A DNA stretch of 11,731 nucleotides from a virus (taxonomy: Duplodnaviria; Heunggongvirae; Uroviricota; Caudoviricetes). Under the pieces are notes generated by a model that searched no databases, had not been told where the DNA came from, and saw only the letters and a list, made by a program, of their open reading frames with translations. A program made the translations under genes and the position numbers. The DNA lies in the IMG/VR virus record IMGVR_UViG_2690316156_000010; one strand, 5' to 3'. Positions 1,337 through 9,095 of the stretch are shown here, piece after piece (the first letter of the stretch is position 1; every line of letters begins with the position of its first letter).

Positions 1337-1618
1337 TTACGTACGCAGTCGTTCCGGCTTCTTCCAGTGGTACGTTATTTTCTCCTTCTCCCGATACATC
1401 TCCACGCGGCGACGGTAGGCCAGCAACTCAAGAACTCTGGTTCGTATGTTGCGCATATCCACGCCATTAAGTTCTATACCATCACGGCGCATCACCTCAG
1501 CAACAACACGCACATAATTTTCAGCGGTCACGCTGTCCGGCTGTGTGGCCTGTTCGTCATGCTGCTGGCTGATTCCGGTAACGCGGCGGATTAATCCCAG
1601 TAGTTCGGCTTCTGTCAT
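1337..1618 (-). CDS. Hypothetical protein, 93 aa
   Basis: ATG at 1618-1616 with a G-rich SD about 5 nt upstream; balanced charged/helical composition (MTEAELLGLIRRVTG…). The overlapping plus-strand ORF 1301-1594 is H/L-rich and less protein-like. It sits beyond the cosB side of the cos region, where a phage would carry terS. Confidence 0.45.
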   Translation of the reverse strand: MTEAELLGLIRRVTGISQQHDEQATQPDSVTAENYVRVVAEVMRRDGIELNGVDMRNIRTRVLELLAYRRRVEMYREKEKITYHWKKPERLRT

Positions 1619-1649: not shown

Positions 1650-1716
1650 GTCGGGTCCTTCCTGGAATTATGGCCCGTTACGGGGCGGCGACCTCGCGGT
1701 TTTTCGCTATTTATGA
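1650..1716 (+). other. Lambda-type cos site, copy 1 (cosQ-like + cosN + truncated cosB)
   Basis: Reads CGGGTCCTTCCTGG…CCCGTTACG|GGGCGGCGACCT|CGCGGTTTTTCGCTATTTATGA. The 12-nt cohesive-end sequence GGGCGGCGACCT is at 1683-1694 and the flanks match the lambda cos junction as I recall it. No R-type repeats follow. Confidence 0.7.
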
Positions 1717-2052
1717 GATTTTTTGAGGGGGTGGTTGTTGTTTAATTGTTTGGTATATCTAATTGATAAGTAAGGTAAAAATAAAATAAATACAACAACC
1801 TTACGATGTATTTTGATGTCATTAATGTGAAAAAATTCAATGATATCAAATGGTTTTGTAAAAACACATGGTTGTTGTATCGCGTATTTGATGGCGTAAC
1901 AGAAAGTGATTTTTAACTTTACCGCTCTGTAACTACGGATTATTCCATGCTGGCACGGAGAACGGCTACGGCATGACGCCACCCAGCCTATACAGAACAG
2001 TAAAGCCGATAAATTGTTAATCACGCGCAGCAATGCGTGTGATTTTTGCACA

Positions 2053-2250
2053 CTTCCGGTTAACGGGTACGATGTCCGGTTTTAGTGTCTGTTTTTTGCG
2101 CATGTCCGGTTCATAGAAAGCATGTTTTTATATTTTTCATATGGTTAACTTGCAGAGAAACCGGACATGGATCCCGGAAAATTTTCATAAATAGTGAAAA
2201 CGCGCGAGGTCGCCGCCCCGTAACGGGTCCATATGCCGGAAAGGACCCGT
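2053..2250 (-). other. Lambda-type cos site, copy 2 (cosQ-like + cosN + full cosB-like region), inverted relative to copy 1
   Basis: Reverse complement of 2171-2260 reads ACGGGTCCTTTCCGGCATATGGACCCGTTACG|GGGCGGCGACCT|CGCGCGTTTTCACTATTTATGAAAATTTTCCGG. cosN is at 2207-2218 (AGGTCGCCGCCC on plus). Three copies of ATGTCCGGTT follow at 2159-2168 (inverted), 2102-2111 and 2072-2081, with an AT-rich stretch between the first two, as in an R3-I1-R2-R1 cosB. Confidence 0.8.
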
Positions 2251-2274
2251 AAAAAAAAGCCGGATTTCTCCGGC
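2251..2274 (-). terminator. Rho-independent terminator of the capsid operon
   Basis: GCCGGA (2259-2264), loop TTTC, TCCGGC (2269-2274); A8 on plus (2251-2258) gives a U8 tail on the minus transcript, 7 nt past the stop of the 137-aa ORF. Confidence 0.6.
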
Positions 2275-2280
2275 CTTGTC

Positions 2281-2694
2281 TCAGATGGTTTTCAGTATGT
2301 GATCGATGTCGCCGTCATCGCCCTGGTTTCTGCCATCGTATGCCATGCCAGCTGATACGGCTTGCGGGCTGTGCATGTCCATAAAGTTTTCAAAGGCTGC
2401 GGTAAGCTCTGGTGCAACCTTTGGGCGCTCCTGCTCTATGGTCATGTTCAGGATTTCACGAGCATTATCGACGCTAATACATGGCACGTTTGCCATTGCA
2501 CGTAACAGCGGCTGATAGTCGTTATGTTCATGAAGCGCCATAATCGCATCAGCGCGCGGCTTGTCCTGTTCTTCCAGTTTGTTGAGTTGATATACGGCCT
2601 CGTAGGTTGATAACCCTCTGTCAGCCATTGCCCGCGCTTCGGCTTTAAATTTACTCGCCAGCGGTAGCGCCATGATGCTTTCATTCGTTGCCAT
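2281..2694 (-). CDS. Hypothetical protein, 137 aa, last gene of the capsid operon (positionally like lambda gpFI; unverified)
   Basis: ATG at 2694-2692 with SD AGGGGGAA about 4 nt upstream, 12 nt after the gpD-like stop; acidic C-terminus. No motif-level similarity to lambda FI that I can confirm. Confidence 0.55.
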   Translation of the reverse strand: MATNESIMALPLASKFKAEARAMADRGLSTYEAVYQLNKLEEQDKPRADAIMALHEHNDYQPLLRAMANVPCISVDNAREILNMTIEQERPKVAPELTAAFENFMDMHSPQAVSAGMAYDGRNQGDDGDIDHILKTI

Positions 2695-2706
2695 CGTTCC
2701 CCCTGC

Positions 2707-3042
2707 TTATCGGGCCAGCGGCTGAACGGATACGCCAGAACCCGCAAAGGCGGCGCATTTTTTCGCATCGGTGTCGACGCTCTCAGGCCAGTTAACGGCG
2801 GCGATATTGAATATCCCCGTCTTATAGCACTGTGCTGATTTCTGCGTCGACGTGTCAACGGGGTACGAGGTCAGATAAACAGCCTTGCCAGATTCCTGAC
2901 CATCCCACGGCTTAAACTCGCCATTGTCCGCCAGCATCAGCGGGGTAAATTCCTGAATAACGCCAGCATCAGCGGCAAAATGTACCAGCGTCGTTGATAC
3001 CTGCTGACTGCCTGCAAATAACTCAATGTATGGAGTGTTCAT
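2707..3042 (-). CDS. Head decoration protein, lambda gpD-like (111 aa)
   Basis: Motifs TPLMLAD, KPWDG, WPE, KK.AAFAG align with lambda gpD as recalled; size matches (lambda gpD is 110 aa). I place the start at ATG 3042-3040 with SD GGTGGA; the track's start at 3051 is a GTG inside that SD. Confidence 0.75.
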   Translation of the reverse strand: MNTPYIELFAGSQQVSTTLVHFAADAGVIQEFTPLMLADNGEFKPWDGQESGKAVYLTSYPVDTSTQKSAQCYKTGIFNIAAVNWPESVDTDAKKCAAFAGSGVSVQPLAR

Positions 3043-3053
3043 AGAATCCACCG

Positions 3054-4109
3054 TTAACCAATTTTGACGGTAACAAATTTGCGAATATCTGCCGGAACAG
3101 GCTGCGGTGCGCTGTGTGTCTGCACGTACTCAATCGCCGGATCGCCGTCTTCAATCCAGTTTTTCGGGTAAAACATGTTTTGCGTTGCGCCCGTTCTTAC
3201 CGCTTCCTGTTCCATAATCGCACCATAGGCCACCAGCCCTTTATTGTTGGTGTTGCCCAGGACCAGCAAATCAGGCTCAAGGAAATATTTTTCTGTGCCG
3301 TCGCTGTCAGTGTATTTGCCGGAATAGACGATAAGGGCCAGATCACCAAGATAGCCTTTAAAGCTCACCACTTCTCCCAGGTTTTTACATGCCAGCTCTG
3401 CGGCGGATTCTGAACCACGGGAGAGATCGTACAGTTCACGGAATTTTTTAAAGCTGCGTAACATGCGCCATACATCAACGCCCATAATCATGACGTTTGC
3501 GGGGCAACCTGCCTGATCTGCGTATAGCTCAATGTCATAGATTGGGTCGTGTATGTCTTTGTCCTGCTCTGACCATTTTTTACCGTCGGCCTGCTCTATG
3601 ATGTTTTTTTCCGGTATCTTCCAGTCGATTTCATAGCGCTCTATGCCTTCGCCCTCAATGATGTTTTTTCCGGTCGTTACCGCATTTACCGCCAGCCATT
3701 CCACGCGCGCTTTAATGGCGTTTATCTGGCGGCGCATGTTGCCAGTAATCAGGCGCATACGGCGGTAGGTAGGGTCGTTAAGCTGTGCTGGATCTTCTCC
3801 AGCCATGCGCATTATTGTTTTTAATGGATCGATTTCGTGTTTTGGCTTCATGTAGCCAGGGCGAATAATGCTTGTTTCGTACCCTTTATCGCGCTGAACC
3901 TGGCTACCCACCATAGGCGAACAAAACGCCGACATAGTGACTTCTTCAATATCCAGGTTATCTAACATGATGTCCTGTGTGTTGAATGTCGCCACGTTCG
4001 GGAAAAACAGCGCGGTAAACAGCGGACTGAATTTAAATTCCGCAATATCCTCGCGATTCAGGTACGCAAAAAGCTGGTTAGTGTTAAGTGATATTGCTTT
4101 TACTGTCAT
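3054..4109 (-). CDS. Major capsid protein, lambda gpE family (351 aa)
   Basis: Shared blocks with lambda gpE from memory: FKFSPLFTALFFP vs FKFDPLFLRLFFR; PGYMKPKHEIDP vs PGYVKPKHEVNP; EDPAQLNDPTYRRMRLI vs DEDPQNLADPAYRRRRII; YPKNWIEDGDPAIEYVQTHSAP vs YPKNWVTTGDPAREFTMIQSAP. ATG at 4109-4107 with SD GGGGGTGA; length close to lambda gpE (341 aa). Confidence 0.9.
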   Translation of the reverse strand: MTVKAISLNTNQLFAYLNREDIAEFKFSPLFTALFFPNVATFNTQDIMLDNLDIEEVTMSAFCSPMVGSQVQRDKGYETSIIRPGYMKPKHEIDPLKTIMRMAGEDPAQLNDPTYRRMRLITGNMRRQINAIKARVEWLAVNAVTTGKNIIEGEGIERYEIDWKIPEKNIIEQADGKKWSEQDKDIHDPIYDIELYADQAGCPANVMIMGVDVWRMLRSFKKFRELYDLSRGSESAAELACKNLGEVVSFKGYLGDLALIVYSGKYTDSDGTEKYFLEPDLLVLGNTNNKGLVAYGAIMEQEAVRTGATQNMFYPKNWIEDGDPAIEYVQTHSAPQPVPADIRKFVTVKIG

Positions 4110-4315
4110 TATTCACCCCCGTGAACCTGATTCATACCCAGCGCCGCGCGTAAATAGGCGCGTACCTGCCAGCCTGTTGACGGCTCAACCATCGCCAGCG
4201 GATCAAGTCCTGCCGCAATGCCTGCTTTTACGTTCTGCTGGTGGCGTTCCTTGAGCGCCTTCACGATGTCGGGGCTTATGTACACCGAAACACCGCCTTT
4301 TTTCTCTTCAGCCAT
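4109..4315 (-). CDS. Hypothetical protein, 68 aa, first gene of the capsid operon
   Basis: ATG at 4315-4313 with SD AGAGGAA about 9 nt upstream; its TAA overlaps the capsid ATG (TAATG), indicating translational coupling. No recognisable family. Confidence 0.5.
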   Translation of the reverse strand: MAEEKKGGVSVYISPDIVKALKERHQQNVKAGIAAGLDPLAMVEPSTGWQVRAYLRAALGMNQVHGGE

Positions 4316-4555: not shown

Positions 4556-4828
4556 TTAGCTGCCTGGGTAATTACGCCATATTTCATCGCTTACACCATC
4601 TATACCCATTTCAGCATAAGTGCGATCGACTGCCTTTCTCAGGTCTCCGAAGTTATCCGGCGGCTCCGGTGGCCTCTGTGCCTTCCTGGAACATTCCAGC
4701 CGTCGCATCGTAACCTGATGCCGTTCCTTGTCTGTCTCCACCAGCTGCATGACTTCACCCCATCGTGCCGCCGCCCTCCGGTAAAAGCCTTTTGCCTCGA
4801 GTTCCTCCGCTATGCGGTCATGTACCAT
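4556..4828 (-). CDS. Small regulator, possibly PerC/Pch family (90 aa; track shows a longer 130-aa form from 4948 that overlaps ssb)
   Basis: ATG at 4828-4826 sits 11 nt after the ssb stop with SD GAGGGGGTGAGG. AEELEAKGFYRRAAARWGEVMQL resembles the PerC/Pch signature as I remember it (…LE..G.WRRAA.RW…); the family call is tentative. Confidence 0.45.
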   Translation of the reverse strand: MVHDRIAEELEAKGFYRRAAARWGEVMQLVETDKERHQVTMRRLECSRKAQRPPEPPDNFGDLRKAVDRTYAEMGIDGVSDEIWRNYPGS

Positions 4829-4838
4829 CCTCACCCCC

Positions 4839-5249
4839 TCAGAACGGAATATCATCACCGTAAGGGTCATCGCCTCCCGCTGGTGGCTGATTACCCTGTG
4901 TGCCTGTGGTTTTGCGTCTGTTCCCGCCAGGACGTGCCGCACGGGCACTGATTACGCTGTCTGCAATAACCTGATAACCCTGCCGCGTTTCCCCGTTCTG
5001 TCCGGTCCACTGGCTGACCTGCATCGTGCCGGATACGCTGGCAACGTCGCCTTTTTGATGTTTAGCCAGGAAGTCGGCCTGCTTACCAAATGCCATCACC
5101 GATAGCCATAACGTAGCCTGCCCATCCTGCGCCTGACTACATGGCAACGATACCGCCATACGTGCCAGCGTCATTGGTGTGCCCTTGCTGGTCTGTTTTA
5201 CCTGCGGGTCGTCCACCAGCCGCCCGTAAGCCGCTATCTGTGCTGTCAT
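4839..5249 (-). CDS. ssb: Single-stranded DNA-binding protein, short phage/plasmid-type (136 aa)
   Basis: OB-fold-like N-terminal region, Gly/Pro/Gln-rich linker, and the characteristic acidic C-terminal tail …DDPYGDDIPF. ATG at 5249-5247 overlaps the upstream stop (ATGA). Confidence 0.85.
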   Translation of the reverse strand: MTAQIAAYGRLVDDPQVKQTSKGTPMTLARMAVSLPCSQAQDGQATLWLSVMAFGKQADFLAKHQKGDVASVSGTMQVSQWTGQNGETRQGYQVIADSVISARAARPGGNRRKTTGTQGNQPPAGGDDPYGDDIPF

Positions 5250-5572: not shown

Positions 5573-5797
5573 CCTCTACCTCTCTACCTAATCATCTTTC
5601 ATGTCAGTAATGGCGCGGCTTTCAGATGGGTAGAGGGCTTTCGTGGCCCTCTACCCATCCTCTACCCGCCCCTCACAAACGATCTTAATCATGGTAGAAG
5701 AGGTAGAGAGGTTTTATTAGCCTTCTACCTAGCCCTCTACCCACTTATCATGTTGAATAATATGCGTTTATTTCATTCAGGTGGATGGGGTAGAGGA
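5573..5797. repeat. Iteron array, putative replication origin
   Basis: About ten copies of CTCTACC / GGTAGAG in both orientations (for example 5573-5580, 5582-5588, 5628-5637, 5648-5657, 5659-5667, 5693-5711, 5721-5730, 5733-5742, 5787-5797), with AT-rich stretches at 5745-5780 and 5800-5820, immediately 3' of the primase gene. Confidence 0.65.
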
Positions 5798-5810: not shown

Positions 5811-7559
5811 TTATAAAAACGCGTCACAATCATCAGTTGTAATTGCGTTGGTCTGCGTTACTCCCTTAACTCTCCGCGTAATATATTCATGTCCGTAAAC
5901 TTTTGCCGCTGGCTTCATGGCCTTGCTGAACTCAGCCACGTTTAGCGGTTTGCTCCTGCCTGCGTATGCCATAAACGCCAGATAGACGCGGTAAAGGCTG
6001 TTTCTGGTCGTGTACTTCACGGAATCGCCACCGCCACCCATCATCAGGCCGCGCGCTTCCTCCAGAAAATTCAGGAACTGGCAAAACTCAATAACCGGAT
6101 CCGTCTGTTGCTTTATCGCCAGTGCTTCATCACCGTCGCGCTGTTCCAGTAATAAAGCCCGTGCCTTTTCAGGGTCGGCAAAATTAGCCAGCAAGCGACG
6201 GATAATTACGGGGATTTCAGCCGCGACCTTCTCCGGCAAATCCTTGTCTTTTTCGTCCTCCCTTACAATGTTGTCGAACCGGAAAATCACCCGACGGCGT
6301 GACACACCTCCGGCCCGCTCGGTGAATATCATCGGGTTATTGTTGGTAGCCAGCACCACCGCCCTGATTACCGCCGTGAAACGCTTTTCATATTTCGGGT
6401 TAATTTCCACGGGGTCGCCGCCTGTGATTTTCTTGATGCCCGTTCCTTCGCCTGTATATTTCGGCTGGTCAGCCAGGACGATAAGACGACTCCCGACAAC
6501 CTGCGCACGTCCACCAGCATCATCAAGCGATGTCATTTCAGCGCTTACCGTGTTCTGTTTCCCTGCCAGAAGGCTGGCTATGTGTGTGAATGTACTTTTA
6601 CCGCTACCGCCCTCTCCGGTGGCCTCAATAAACATCTGCCAGTCGTACCGGTTCGCCATAATCATGTACAGCGCGGCACATATACGCATCATCTTGCGCG
6701 AGTCTTTTCCGGCTGCGTGCTCAAGCCATTTATGAAAGTTTGGCGCGTTATCGCGGATGTTCTCCCCTGGTGCTGGTGGCGTGTACTCAATGCCGTTGTT
6801 CGTGGTGATCCAGTTCTCCGGCGTGTGCGGGGAAAATTCCCCCGTTTTCAGGTCAAGCGCACCATTGGCGAACGGCAGCAAATCGCCGGACGGCTCGCCC
6901 ATTGGTTCGGCAATAACTTTTAACGCTTCCACGGCGTTATTGATTACGCGCTTGCTGAAAGTGGCCCTGTGCTCTGAATAGATCGCCACCATTTCGCGGC
7001 TAAGTTCCATTGTGCTGACCGGACACCATACCCCGCCGCGCCATACGTGAACGATTTCACTTTCCGGATGCACACAAACGCCATCAAATCGACCAGCAAG
7101 CATCTGTGCGCGCTCACTGTCTGCCATTTGTGCCAGTTGCGTATTTTTCTGCTCCGGCATGGTAAGCCCTGCGGCAATATTTTCACGCTCAGCATTCAGA
7201 TAGCGCCGCCAGTTTTCACACTTCTGGACGTGCATTCCTTCGGGGTAAAAATTTGCGTCCTGAATATCTGCCGCCGCCAGCTTCTGACCAATCTTTTTGG
7301 TCTCCACCAAATCCAGTTCTCCGGCCTGGTACAGCCTTACGCGTTTTTTTCCATCAGGAACAATTTGCAGTGCATCAAGTTCGGCAAGCTGATTTGGCCC
7401 AAGCCACACAGGAGGCACATTATCGCCGGATGCGGGGCCGTCCTGCTCCTGCCACTGTTTTGCATGTGCCCACGCATCACTACCCGCGAAAATAATCACC
7501 TCTGTGTCTTTGTGTTTTATTCCGCGTGGCTGTTTTTTTACGTTCGGTGCCAGTTTCAT
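5811..7559 (-). CDS. Replication initiator: primase / D5-type helicase fusion (P4 alpha-like, 582 aa)
   Basis: Walker A P-loop GEGGSGKST mid-protein with a downstream LIVLAD hydrophobic-acidic stretch (Walker B-like); size and position (after small early ORFs, before ori) match satellite pri/rep genes. ATG at 7559-7557 overlaps the upstream stop. Confidence 0.85.
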   Translation of the reverse strand: MKLAPNVKKQPRGIKHKDTEVIIFAGSDAWAHAKQWQEQDGPASGDNVPPVWLGPNQLAELDALQIVPDGKKRVRLYQAGELDLVETKKIGQKLAAADIQDANFYPEGMHVQKCENWRRYLNAERENIAAGLTMPEQKNTQLAQMADSERAQMLAGRFDGVCVHPESEIVHVWRGGVWCPVSTMELSREMVAIYSEHRATFSKRVINNAVEALKVIAEPMGEPSGDLLPFANGALDLKTGEFSPHTPENWITTNNGIEYTPPAPGENIRDNAPNFHKWLEHAAGKDSRKMMRICAALYMIMANRYDWQMFIEATGEGGSGKSTFTHIASLLAGKQNTVSAEMTSLDDAGGRAQVVGSRLIVLADQPKYTGEGTGIKKITGGDPVEINPKYEKRFTAVIRAVVLATNNNPMIFTERAGGVSRRRVIFRFDNIVREDEKDKDLPEKVAAEIPVIIRRLLANFADPEKARALLLEQRDGDEALAIKQQTDPVIEFCQFLNFLEEARGLMMGGGGDSVKYTTRNSLYRVYLAFMAYAGRSKPLNVAEFSKAMKPAAKVYGHEYITRRVKGVTQTNAITTDDCDAFL

Positions 7560-7855
7560 TTTTTACCCCTGAATACGTTAAGCATCTTTTTTATTTCCTG
7601 AATATTGGCGCGTGCTTTCTCCCTGCTGGTTGGAACGTTACGCGGTACAGCCTGCACCAGAGAAAAATCACGGTCGAACTGATAAACAGGCATCACGCAA
7701 TCATATTCGTAGCCTTCACGACGGTAGGTTACGCGCCGTTCCTCCACGCCCTTAATCATTACCGTGCCGCCGTACTGGTCGCGGTAAATATCACCGCGCA
7801 TGAATTTAGTGCGAGTTTTGCCACTGGCAGTTAAGCCAGAATATTTAAGTTTCAT
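7556..7855 (-). CDS. Hypothetical protein, 99 aa, immediately upstream of and coupled to the primase gene
   Basis: ATG at 7855-7853 with GGAG upstream; TGA overlaps the primase ATG. No family recognised. Confidence 0.5.
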   Translation of the reverse strand: MKLKYSGLTASGKTRTKFMRGDIYRDQYGGTVMIKGVEERRVTYRREGYEYDCVMPVYQFDRDFSLVQAVPRNVPTSREKARANIQEIKKMLNVFRGKK

Positions 7856-7860
7856 TATTT

Positions 7861-8088
7861 TTATTCTCCGGTATGGGGCGAGTTATTATTCTCGTGAATT
7901 GCCATCACTGTATTTAATTCATTAATAACAGGCGTTAATAGCGTACGCACGGCAGAAAACATCATTGAATCAGATTCATCGCCACTTTCCGGCACATCAA
8001 TTAACTTAAGTAGTAATGCGTCCATTTCCTTTGCGAGGATTAATGCGTTTTCAGAATGAACAAGAACATCAAAGGGTATTTTATGCAT
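7861..8088 (-). CDS. Hypothetical protein, ~75 aa (track shows 7861-8190 from a start without a ribosome-binding site)
   Basis: ATG at 8088-8086 preceded by GGGGGGAG; this start overlaps the stop of the upstream ORF by 8 nt (ATGCATAA). Confidence 0.4.
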   Translation of the reverse strand: MHKIPFDVLVHSENALILAKEMDALLLKLIDVPESGDESDSMMFSAVRTLLTPVINELNTVMAIHENNNSPHTGE

Positions 8089-8545
8089 GACTCCCCCCCT
8101 GGCGAATACGGGCGACAAAAATAAGATGTGCGTGCGGCAGCTGTGCACGTGCTTCGCGCTCAGTGGCAGCGGTAACGGTGAATATTGCAATACTGTCTGT
8201 CAGGCACTGCATAAAGCGCCAGACAAAATAAGGGCGTGCGGATACAGCCATGTGAAAGGCTCCCAGATGAATTTTAAGGAGTCTCGCTACTACGCTGTCA
8301 AACATGGTGGCGAGACGTAACAGGGTTGACAGACTGGTCATCTGGAAACCAGCGAGCACAAAGGCTCCCCCGTTACGCCCCGCCATAATGCGGGTATGGG
8401 TAGGTTTACGGACACAAAAAAACCGCTTATCGGATGTGGGCGGCTGTCCGCCAGATGTATTCAGGCTGTCAAACCCGGTCGCCATGTGGGCGACGGGGGA
8501 AGCATACAGCCCCGTGATAATTTTTTGCAAGCGGTTTTTACGCAT
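8081..8545 (-). CDS. Repeat-unit ORF B (154 aa from ATG 8545) ending in an Icd-like small domain; an internal SD+ATG at 8251 could give an independent 56-aa product
   Basis: C-terminal 56 aa MAVSARPYFVWRF…TEREARAQLPHAHLIFVARIRQGGSHA is paralogous to two other copies; GGGAG lies 8 nt before the internal ATG at 8251. The ATG at 8545 overlaps the stop of ORF A. Icd-like assignment is from memory of similarly annotated small proteins in P4/PICI elements. Confidence 0.45.
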   Translation of the reverse strand: MRKNRLQKIITGLYASPVAHMATGFDSLNTSGGQPPTSDKRFFCVRKPTHTRIMAGRNGGAFVLAGFQMTSLSTLLRLATMFDSVVARLLKIHLGAFHMAVSARPYFVWRFMQCLTDSIAIFTVTAATEREARAQLPHAHLIFVARIRQGGSHA

Positions 8546-9095
8546 GATGTGACCCCTGACGAATACGAGCGGCAAATACAGCAACACAACCTGACGGGCA
8601 ACGGCTACGCGCTTCGCGTTCTGTCCAGGCGGTTACGTGGATGATTTGAGATTCTGACGCGCCAAAGATGATAAAGCGCCAGATAAATGCGGTTTGAGAA
8701 TGTACAAGGGTAGGGATAGTAGCCATGTTGGCAGCCTCCTCAGTGTGGTTAAGATAACCGCCACGCAAAAGGCTAATTTCGCTGGTGGCGGACTGTACAG
8801 GGTTAGCCTTACCGGACACTGAAGAAACCGGCGCGGATTGCTCCGCCCCCGTACAGCCCACCATTGATAAGGTGTGACTATGCGGCACAAAAAAACACGC
8901 GGGGCGCGTGCTGTGCGCTTCAGTTGTTTTCAGGAGGCTAATCCCGACACCCGTTTTATGAGGTGCGCGGGAATCATAGCCATTTTTGCTGGTGGCGATC
9001 AAGCGGTTTTTTTCTCCGGCACTCAGTGCCAGAAAACGCCACACAAAGGCCGTTTGTGTGTGTACAAGGTGTGGTATATGATTTACGGCAACCAT
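8538..9095 (-). CDS. Repeat-unit ORF A (185 aa from ATG 9095) carrying two Icd-like repeats; an internal SD+ATG at 8726 could give an independent 62-aa product
   Basis: N-terminal copy MVAVNHIPHLVHTQTAFVWRF (SD GGAG before 9095) and C-terminal copy MATIPTLVHSQTAFIWRF…TEREARSRC…FAARIRQGSHHA (SD GAGGAGG before 8726). Between the copies, differences are mostly synonymous in this frame (CAT/CAC, ACC/ACG, GCA/GCC, CGC/CGT) and non-synonymous in the plus frame, which supports minus-strand coding. Confidence 0.45.
   Translation of the reverse strand: MVAVNHIPHLVHTQTAFVWRFLALSAGEKNRLIATSKNGYDSRAPHKTGVGISLLKTTEAHSTRPACFFVPHSHTLSMVGCTGAEQSAPVSSVSGKANPVQSATSEISLLRGGYLNHTEEAANMATIPTLVHSQTAFIWRFIIFGASESQIIHVTAWTEREARSRCPSGCVAVFAARIRQGSHHA
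8889..8910 (-). terminator. Intrinsic-terminator-like hairpin plus U7 inside ORF A (possible attenuator)
   Basis: On the minus transcript CACGCG-CCC-CGCGUG followed by UUUUUUU (plus 8896-8910 with A7 at 8889-8895), about 190 nt after the ORF A start; the U-run encodes the conserved CFFV residues. Confidence 0.35.

Follow-up and report, generated by a model that had tools for sequence, protein, structure and literature searches.

Two opposed lambda-type cos sites with different cosB modules flank an invertible segment in an Escherichia coli chromosomal island of the EcCICFT073 family

The DNA analysed here, IMG/VR virus record IMGVR_UViG_2690316156_000010 (a stretch of 11,731 nucleotides, called the window in the following), is a phage-inducible chromosomal island (PICI) of the EcCICFT073 family of Escherichia coli, and its region 1650-2250 is the cos packaging module of the island. 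Two lambda-type cos sites were found in this module in inverted orientation, the cosB sides of both copies pointing inward, toward each other, and among other strains the intervening DNA is met with in either orientation. The two copies are not a simple duplicate: judged from their sequences, they carry cosB modules of two different specificities, a point that was overlooked by an initial annotation of the window made from its letters alone, as was the inversion of the segment. The module probably provides two alternative packaging start sites for two classes of helper, on a cassette that inverts at a conserved core.

The cosN 12-mer GGGCGGCGACCT was found exactly twice in the window, at 1683-1694 on the plus strand and, as its exact reverse complement, at 2207-2218 on the minus strand. 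With up to one mismatch allowed, 0.09 matches would be expected by chance, and two or more were reached in one of 200 shuffled sequences. Both copies lie within the longest inverted repeat of the window, whose arms (1652-1723 and 2178-2249) are 72 nt long, 83% complementary and separated by 454 nt; the initial annotation had recognised the repeat itself and had given its length, incorrectly, as about 55 bp. In each arm the cosQ heptamer GGGTCCT (1653-1659 on the plus strand in the left arm, 2242-2248 on the minus strand in the right arm) stands exactly 30 nt upstream of cosN, which is the lambda spacing in an alignment to NC_001416, and the start of the lambda left end (about 25 bp, CGCGxxTTTTCxCTATTTATGA) is kept in both arms in the same alignment. 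The lambda cos junction used here was assembled from both ends of NC_001416, and the junction given in the initial annotation agreed with it. Each arm thus holds the exact cohesive-end 12-mer, cosQ at the lambda spacing and, as described below, a cosB repeat array, which bears out the earlier reading of two inverted lambda-type cos sites with inward cosB in a helper-dependent satellite. The two cosN sites enclose 512 bp (1695-2206) with a G+C content of 38%, compared with 49% for the whole window, in agreement with the AT-rich spacer of about 0.5 kb noted before.

The left cosB, here called A type (1695-1883, plus strand), holds three copies of the repeat GGTTGTTGT at 1733-1741 (+), 1792-1800 (-) and 1870-1878 (+), which corresponds to bp 51 (+), 110 (-) and 188 (+) counted from cosN. 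The stretch 1677-1883 of this arm (207 bp) is 98% identical to the cos that immediately precedes the terS-terL-portal genes of a lambdoid prophage in strain CFSAN061770 (prophage A in the following), where the repeats occupy the same positions, and the arm is 92% identical to a prophage cos in an O111:H8 strain. None of 200 shuffled sequences reached three such repeats. The statement of the initial annotation that only the right copy has a full cosB array was therefore not upheld. The right cosB, here called PhiR12 type (2072-2206, minus strand), carries repeats with the core CCGGACAT at 2159-2168, 2102-2111 and 2072-2081, that is, at bp 51 (-), 110 (+) and 140 (+) from cosN; the positions are the same in PhiR12, and again three repeats were reached in none of 200 shuffles. 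The right arm (2072-2256) gave a 185-bp BLAST match of 94% identity to the cos just upstream of Nu1 in the phages PhiR12_1 to PhiR12_5, and its cosB shares 96% identity with that of EcCICFT073 cos2 and 85% identity, over 178 nt, with that of PhiR12. In the matching phages, the repeat arrays stop just before the start of terS.

Compared with the lambda cos, both arms share the 12-nt cohesive end, the cosQ distance, the first 25 bp or so of the left end, and a set of three repeats of which one lies near bp 51, the second, inverted, near bp 110, and the third distally; the lambda repeats R3, R2 and R1 (CGTTTCC) are at bp 53 (+), 114 (-) and 155 (+). The window differs from lambda in that its repeats bear no sequence relation to CGTTTCC, the sites are not followed by a terminase gene, and two opposed sites are present per genome. 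In a consensus scan, the left arm gave an IHF-like site with one mismatch at bp 74, which falls between its first and second repeats (the lambda site is at bp 79), and the same scan found no site in the right arm or in PhiR12. The small terminases (TerS) of the matching phages were compared as well: PhiR12 Nu1 and prophage-A TerS share 70-73% identity over the C-terminal 146 amino acids (aa), and no similarity is detectable in the N-terminal DNA-binding region. This pattern would fit two recognition specificities that work with one kind of large terminase.

When the arms were compared half by half across the family, the two halves behaved differently. The left arm occupies the family cos2 position, and its 45-nt cosQ half is 100% identical to those of the cos2 arms of CFT073, CH4799 and NCTC9112, so that the cos2-type cosQ half is the same in four islands. 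The right arm occupies the cos1 position, which adjoins the capsid operon, and its cosQ half is 89-100% identical to those of the cos1 arms of the same three islands. The cosQ halves are accordingly fixed by position. The cosB of the left arm, by comparison, is 98% identical to that of prophage A, 83% to that of CH4799 cos2 and 73% to that of NCTC9112 cos1. On these identities, the cosB halves are mobile and have been reshuffled across the family onto position-fixed cosQ halves.

The closest described system is EcCICFT073 (Fillol-Salom et al. 2018, ISME J, PMC6092414; Fillol-Salom et al. 2019, Mol Cell, PMC6739421; reviewed in Murialdo and Feiss 2022, PMC9026076). It has been reported that each of its two sites, cos1 and cos2, gives lambda- or phi80-mediated plasmid transfer, that island transfer is abolished by deletion of both, and that RppA, by pairing with the TerS of the helper, diverts this protein to the cos1 cosB (PMC6092414, PMC6739421). 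In the CFT073 genome (NC_004431; L009), cosN was located at 7559-7570 (+) and 8298-8309 (-) with rppA at 7660-8094 (+) between them; the sequences published for cos1 and cos2 correspond to these two places. The pair is flanked by the capsid, decoration and 137-aa genes on one side and by the 93-aa gene and then phoQ on the other. The words inverted and orientation are not used for the cos pair in the main texts of PMC6092414 and PMC6739421. An inverted pair was also found in CH4799 (around an rppA cassette), in NCTC9112 (around a cassette with a 180-aa terS) and in most of the IMG/VR relatives. The inverted duplicate is therefore the family norm and not an anomaly, contrary to the initial annotation, which had called it unexpected: EcCICFT073 had been published with two functional cos sites, and these are inverted around rppA in the CFT073 genome. 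Family members typically have two inverted lambda-type cos sites, with cosB inward, around a small variable cassette.

The window shares with EcCICFT073 the island family, the gene order, the two cos positions, the cosQ halves and the inverted layout with inward cosB. It differs in having no rpp except a 3' remnant and no island-specific cosB; a cos2-type cosB stands at its cos1 position, and a third cosB, the one 98% identical to that of the prophage, stands at its cos2 position. The papers on EcCICFT073 report no phage cosB in either site, whereas in the present comparison the cos2 cosB matches PhiR12-type phages. The islands with a terS cassette (for example those of NCTC9112, O157:H7 and O26:H11 strains) share the inverted cos pair and the flanks, and their cos1 cosB, with GGTTGGTGT repeats, is the one 73% identical to the left arm of the window; unlike the window island, which encodes none, they carry a full-length 180-aa TerS between the sites. 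This TerS replaces Rpp in many relatives (L003 4220-4762, minus strand, and O157:H7, O26:H11 and O145 strains). It is 49% identical to prophage-A TerS by BLASTP, the DNA-binding end included, and the protein of one relative gave no significant match to the PDB by sequence when a link to lambda Nu1 or RppC was sought. On its sequence, it would amount to a strategy in which a cos-packaged island brings a small terminase of its own. Another group of relatives has a single cos (L067 3400-4085; L068, L069, L099 and L101) with a different cosN-like sequence (…CACGGGGCGGGAGCGGCGCAG…), followed, in the L067 type, by a PhiR12-type cosB and an open reading frame for the N-terminal DNA-binding part only of PhiR12 Nu1, directly before the 93-aa gene. 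Outside the family, SaPIbov4, for which PMC6092414 gives two putative cos sites, is likewise a satellite with two candidate cos sites; it is staphylococcal and its sequences are unrelated.

These comparisons suggest how the two sites of the window could be used. In the archetype, the RppA encoded in the cassette pairs with the helper small terminase and redirects it to the island-specific cosB of cos1. In the window island, a helper TerS that recognises the GGTTGTTGT array would start at the left cos and package rightward, and a helper TerS that recognises the CCGGACAT array would start at the right cos and package leftward; packaging in either direction, which the initial annotation had proposed as one possibility, is a reasonable reading. 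For termination of the lambda type, cosQ is needed upstream of cosN in the direction of travel (PMC9026076). The inverted partner should therefore be invisible as a terminator, and the whole island unit would be packaged from either arm. If the two sites were instead direct repeats, there would be a risk of genomes lacking or duplicating the cassette, or of deletion of the cassette by recombination, and the inverted layout could be explained by this risk of cassette loss or duplication. The common core of the two arms also serves as a crossover point for inversion of the segment.

The close mimicry of helper cosB in both arms could also be read in another way, as a decoy: the phage-type arms would attract the helper terminase, provoke unproductive cutting and so replace the lost Rpp in lowering the yield of the helper. 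Replication of the island on induction, as inferred from PICI biology (PMC6092414), would supply many such decoy sites. However, a cos that is bound and cut by terminase is also a packaging start, so that the two roles are inseparable by sequence, and the published interference was mapped to Rpp (PMC6739421), with none known from cos sites alone. We regard a decoy role as very unlikely, and the reading of two packaging starts for two helper classes was kept.

Natural strains show both orientations of the DNA between the cosN sites, and this holds for the gene-less cassette of the window, for the rppA cassette and for the terS cassette. For the gene-less cassette, one (L012) of the ten contigs with an identical 93-aa gene carries the 512-bp segment exactly reversed. 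It agreed at 715 of 716 positions with a construct of the window in which 1695-2206 had been flipped and at 365 of 716 with the unflipped sequence, and the exchange point is confined to the 25-nt core that is identical in both arms (cccgttacg-GGGCGGCGACCT-cgcg). Among the gene-less cassettes in IMG/VR (n=10), six are in the state of the window and four are flipped. In complete genomes, the state of the window was found in S1-CAM-02-A, SCU-172, CEA601S and NCTC9112, and the flipped state in STEC2018-607 (99.6% identity when flipped), JNEC-KY203 and GF4. For the rppA cassette, strain WP4-S17-ESBL-08 has the 727-bp segment reversed, with 100.0% identity to CFT073, the locus (phoQ) and the RppA accession being shared by both strains, and in junction-specific queries of 5426 complete E. 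coli genomes the cassette had the CFT073 orientation in 69 genomes and was flipped in 15. Similarly, the 855-bp terS segments of 2014C-4587 and NCTC9112 have opposite orientations (88% identity when one is flipped, 60% when they are compared directly). These counts of orientation are not rates, as the sampling is clonal.

Two trivial explanations of the flipped copies were considered and rejected. An assembly artefact does not account for them, because the shared core of 25-50 nt is shorter than a read and the flipped state is found in complete genomes from several laboratories and in three cassette types. Independent acquisition of cosB was rejected for the gene-less and rppA cassettes, since the entire segment of 512 or 727 bp, internal junctions included, is 99.6-100% identical once reversed. 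In the literature searched, neither inversion nor inverted cos sites were found described for such islands.

As for the route of the flip, no serine or tyrosine invertase was found near the segment, and the integrase of the island, at a distance of about 8 kb, is the only recombinase present. The arrangement resembles the Hin, Gin, Cin and fim switches in that a short segment lies between inverted repeats and both orientations are present among natural isolates; it differs from them in that no dedicated invertase is adjacent, the repeats are packaging sites, and flipping appears slow. In many relatives (L036, L039, L055-L062, L064, L070, L076, L078 and L020), the cos2-type 30-nt cosQ stands on both arms, the cosQ of the cos1 position (the arm beside the 137-aa gene) having been replaced, so that the arms are identical over about 50 nt. 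This shared 30-nt cosQ is evidence that gene conversion has taken place between the arms. For the flip, and for the reshuffling of cosB modules, the most likely route is homologous recombination between the arms, or gene conversion, and cutting of cosN by terminase may stimulate it.

The absence of an invertase gene from the island also leaves room for a switch made by the terminase itself. If both cosN sites were cut, the freed fragment would have the same 12-nt overhangs at its two ends and could religate either way, as inward-facing cos sites give compatible ends in both arrangements according to the known structure of the lambda cohesive ends. Such a recombinase-free switch, run by the terminase of the helper, would reverse the polarity of packaging, uncouple rpp or terS from the late operon and shuffle cosB modules at cosN, and in gene-bearing cassettes the flip may also alter the expression of rpp or terS. 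The exchange in the gene-less cassette falls within the 25-nt core that includes cosN, with flanking polymorphisms left unconverted (the 715 of 716 positions above). Furthermore, all 57 gene-bearing cassettes in IMG/VR are co-directional with the capsid operon, which hints that orientation matters when a gene lies inside, although the sampling is clonal; together with the four flipped gene-less cassettes among ten, this is what would be expected if orientation matters only with a gene. However, the core is at the same time the longest perfect identity between the arms, so that homologous recombination predicts identical breakpoints, and the homogenisation of the arms over the 30-nt cosQ points to ordinary gene conversion. 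Three independent CFT073 assemblies have the same orientation, and flipping is therefore not rapid; promoter scans gave no clear evidence of orientation-dependent rpp expression; and clonal sampling again means that the counts cannot be taken as rates. A terminase-driven switch therefore seems rather unlikely to us, and recombination between the arms remains the route assumed for the cassette with two packaging starts.

The history of the gene-less cassette can be read from its interior. On the minus strand at 1917-1987 lies a remnant of the 3' end of rpp, whose translation (AGWRHAVAVLRASME followed by a stop) matches the C-terminus of RppA (...AGWRHAVSVRRASMEQS...). It comprises the last 16-23 codons or so with an internal stop, and has neither a start codon nor a DNA-binding domain. 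No open reading frame in 1695-2206 gave a family match. One of them, an open reading frame of 114 aa at 1707-2051 (-), was considered as a truncated terS and rejected as a gene, as it has no Pfam or PHROG match and overlaps the cosB repeats. At 2022-2039 (+) there is a hairpin followed by a T-run, which was read as the rpp terminator, since its CFT073 counterpart sits just past the stop of rppA; in the window the hairpin is linked to the right arm and stands in inverted orientation to what remains of rpp. Positions 1344-1988 of the window are colinear with CH4799, and 1984-2249 correspond, in reverse, to the cos2 arm of CFT073 together with the hairpin past the rppA stop. From this meeting of a CH4799-colinear part with a reversed CFT073 cos2 arm, it follows that the cassette is derived from one with rpp, and that most of rpp was lost in a rearrangement together with the island-specific cosB. 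The past rearrangement suspected in the initial annotation was thereby supported, the rpp remnant abutting an inverted copy of the arm of the EcCICFT073 cos2 position.

The same facts could be taken to mean that the right arm is a relic, the scar of an event that destroyed rpp and cos1, in an island that is now defective or packaged from a single cos, so that neither the second site nor its orientation would serve any function. An illegitimate event is evident from the remnant of rpp and from the point, at about 1984-1988, where two 3' regions of rpp meet head to head; the junction that defines the cassette is rare, being present in 11 of the 5426 complete E. coli genomes, and a single cos suffices in some relatives, namely those of the L067 type. 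On the other side, both repeat arrays are intact, with the repeats positioned as in the matching phages and cosQ at the lambda spacing, and a near-identical cassette is present in many assemblies, on two backbones and at two attachment sites, which argues that it spread after the rearrangement. The exact 93-aa protein was found in 194 index blocks, and the gene-less cassette was present in all ten of the places listed; it also occurs in a second island of NCTC9112, at clpS/cspD, with another integrase and another replication module. We therefore consider a functionless relic unlikely. As a separate observation, the two islands of NCTC9112 (L003 and L105) have identical capsid, decoration and 137-aa proteins and differ in integrases, replication modules, attachment sites (tRNA-Pro/yejO and clpS/cspD) and cassettes (terS and gene-less), which suggests module exchange between co-resident islands.

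The use of both sites by two helper classes remains the preferred explanation, and several points weigh against it. Deletion of cos2 raised the transfer of EcCICFT073 (PMC6092414), and a second cos can therefore be a cost and not a benefit. The left-type cosB (window 1695-1900) is present in 232 of the 5426 complete E. coli genomes; it was found in no sequenced phage of the phage collection and is known only from prophages. In CP145707, the closest host genome, the right-type cosB has extra copies in three places, and the only left-type copy is that of the island itself, so that no matching resident helper for the left arm is evident there. The rarity of the cassette junction given above counts on the same side, and an island without Rpp, having no known means to outcompete its helper, could be a decaying variant.

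The assignment of the window to the EcCICFT073 family rests on its whole organisation. An island in the chromosome of E. coli S1-CAM-02-A, located between tRNA-Pro/yejM and yejO, matches the window with 99.3% identity. The genes of the island are all on the minus strand and encode the integrase, a small helix-turn-helix (HTH) regulator, Ash and Icd-like proteins, a DUF4222 protein, primase, SSB, PerC, a 68-aa protein and the late genes. The order common to this island and EcCICFT073 is int, HTH, icd, DUF4222, primase, SSB, PerC and the 68-aa gene, followed by a late module with the lambda E-like capsid gene, the D-like decoration gene, the 137-aa gene, cos, the cassette, cos and the 93-aa gene. 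The conserved organisation of about 10-15 kb at a specific attachment site and the two cos sites with helper-like cosQ and cosN are thus present as in the family, and the rpp gene downstream of cos1 is absent. A P4-like island or a capsid-forming PICI had been considered because of the icd, primase and capsid annotations, and both were ruled out by the synteny with EcCICFT073.

Next to the right cos, a terminator-like hairpin with a 9-bp stem and a T-run (2256-2277, minus strand) closes the capsid-gene operon just outside the site. The outer flank of the cos1-position arm is the conserved 137-aa gene (phrog_1999; 2281-2694, minus strand), with weak similarity to the C-terminal part of a head maturation protease. 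It is followed by the genes of the gpD-like decoration protein (2707-3051, minus strand) and of the lambda gpE-like major capsid protein (3054-4109, minus strand; Pfam Phage_cap_E, E 4e-49). The block of capsid, decoration, 137-aa and conserved 68-aa genes (2281-4315, minus strand) is also present in EcCICFT073 (L009 5463-7497). The outer flank of the cos2-position arm is the 93-aa gene (phrog_1561; 1337-1618, minus strand), conserved in every family member examined. A gene for a PerC-family activator lies at 4556-4948 (-) (Pfam PerC, E 2.5e-44); repression of the LEE pathogenicity island by an E. coli island is stated in the title of PMC11773190. The 16-nt direct repeat AAACGTATAACTAAAA was found at 664-679 of the window, near the yejO-side end of the island, and at 15362-15377 of L001, between the integrase gene and tRNA-Pro. 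As a candidate core of the attachment site, this repeat would set the size of the island at about 11 kb. In the early or regulatory region (8211-9078), direct repeats of ATAAAGCGCCAGAyAAA are located at 8211, 8671 and 9031, and a pair of 46-nt repeats, 74% identical, at 8673 and 9033; these repeats may be operators or iterons. An inverted repeat of 27 nt with a 7-nt loop, 78% complementary, separates the primase gene from the operon that follows (5612-5672) and may be an origin or terminator structure.

The inverted twin cos is a property of a published family, and the additions made here are new as far as the searched literature shows. They consist of an rpp-less variant with two phage-type arms, of a helper-type cosB at cos2 that varies between islands, and of a natural inversion that affects three classes of cassette. 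Two cos sites in E. coli islands have been known since 2018, and the reason for having two was left open; the present findings make this question testable. The cos2 position carries a phage-type cosB that differs by island, being PhiR12-like, prophage-A-like or phage-4/lambda-like, which suggests that a family member combines one private site, served by Rpp or by a TerS of the island, with one public site matched to a helper. An island free of Rpp with two public sites for two TerS classes would then represent a different strategy of helper range. In addition, the packaging sites themselves serve as points of recombination or inversion. If the terminase were to drive the flip, this would be a new way to make an invertible element, and also a concrete route by which lambdoid phages and their satellites could exchange packaging specificities as mosaics. 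Such islands move virulence-linked regulators, for example PerC homologues, and are being engineered as delivery vehicles, for which the rules and the stability of the cos module matter in practice.

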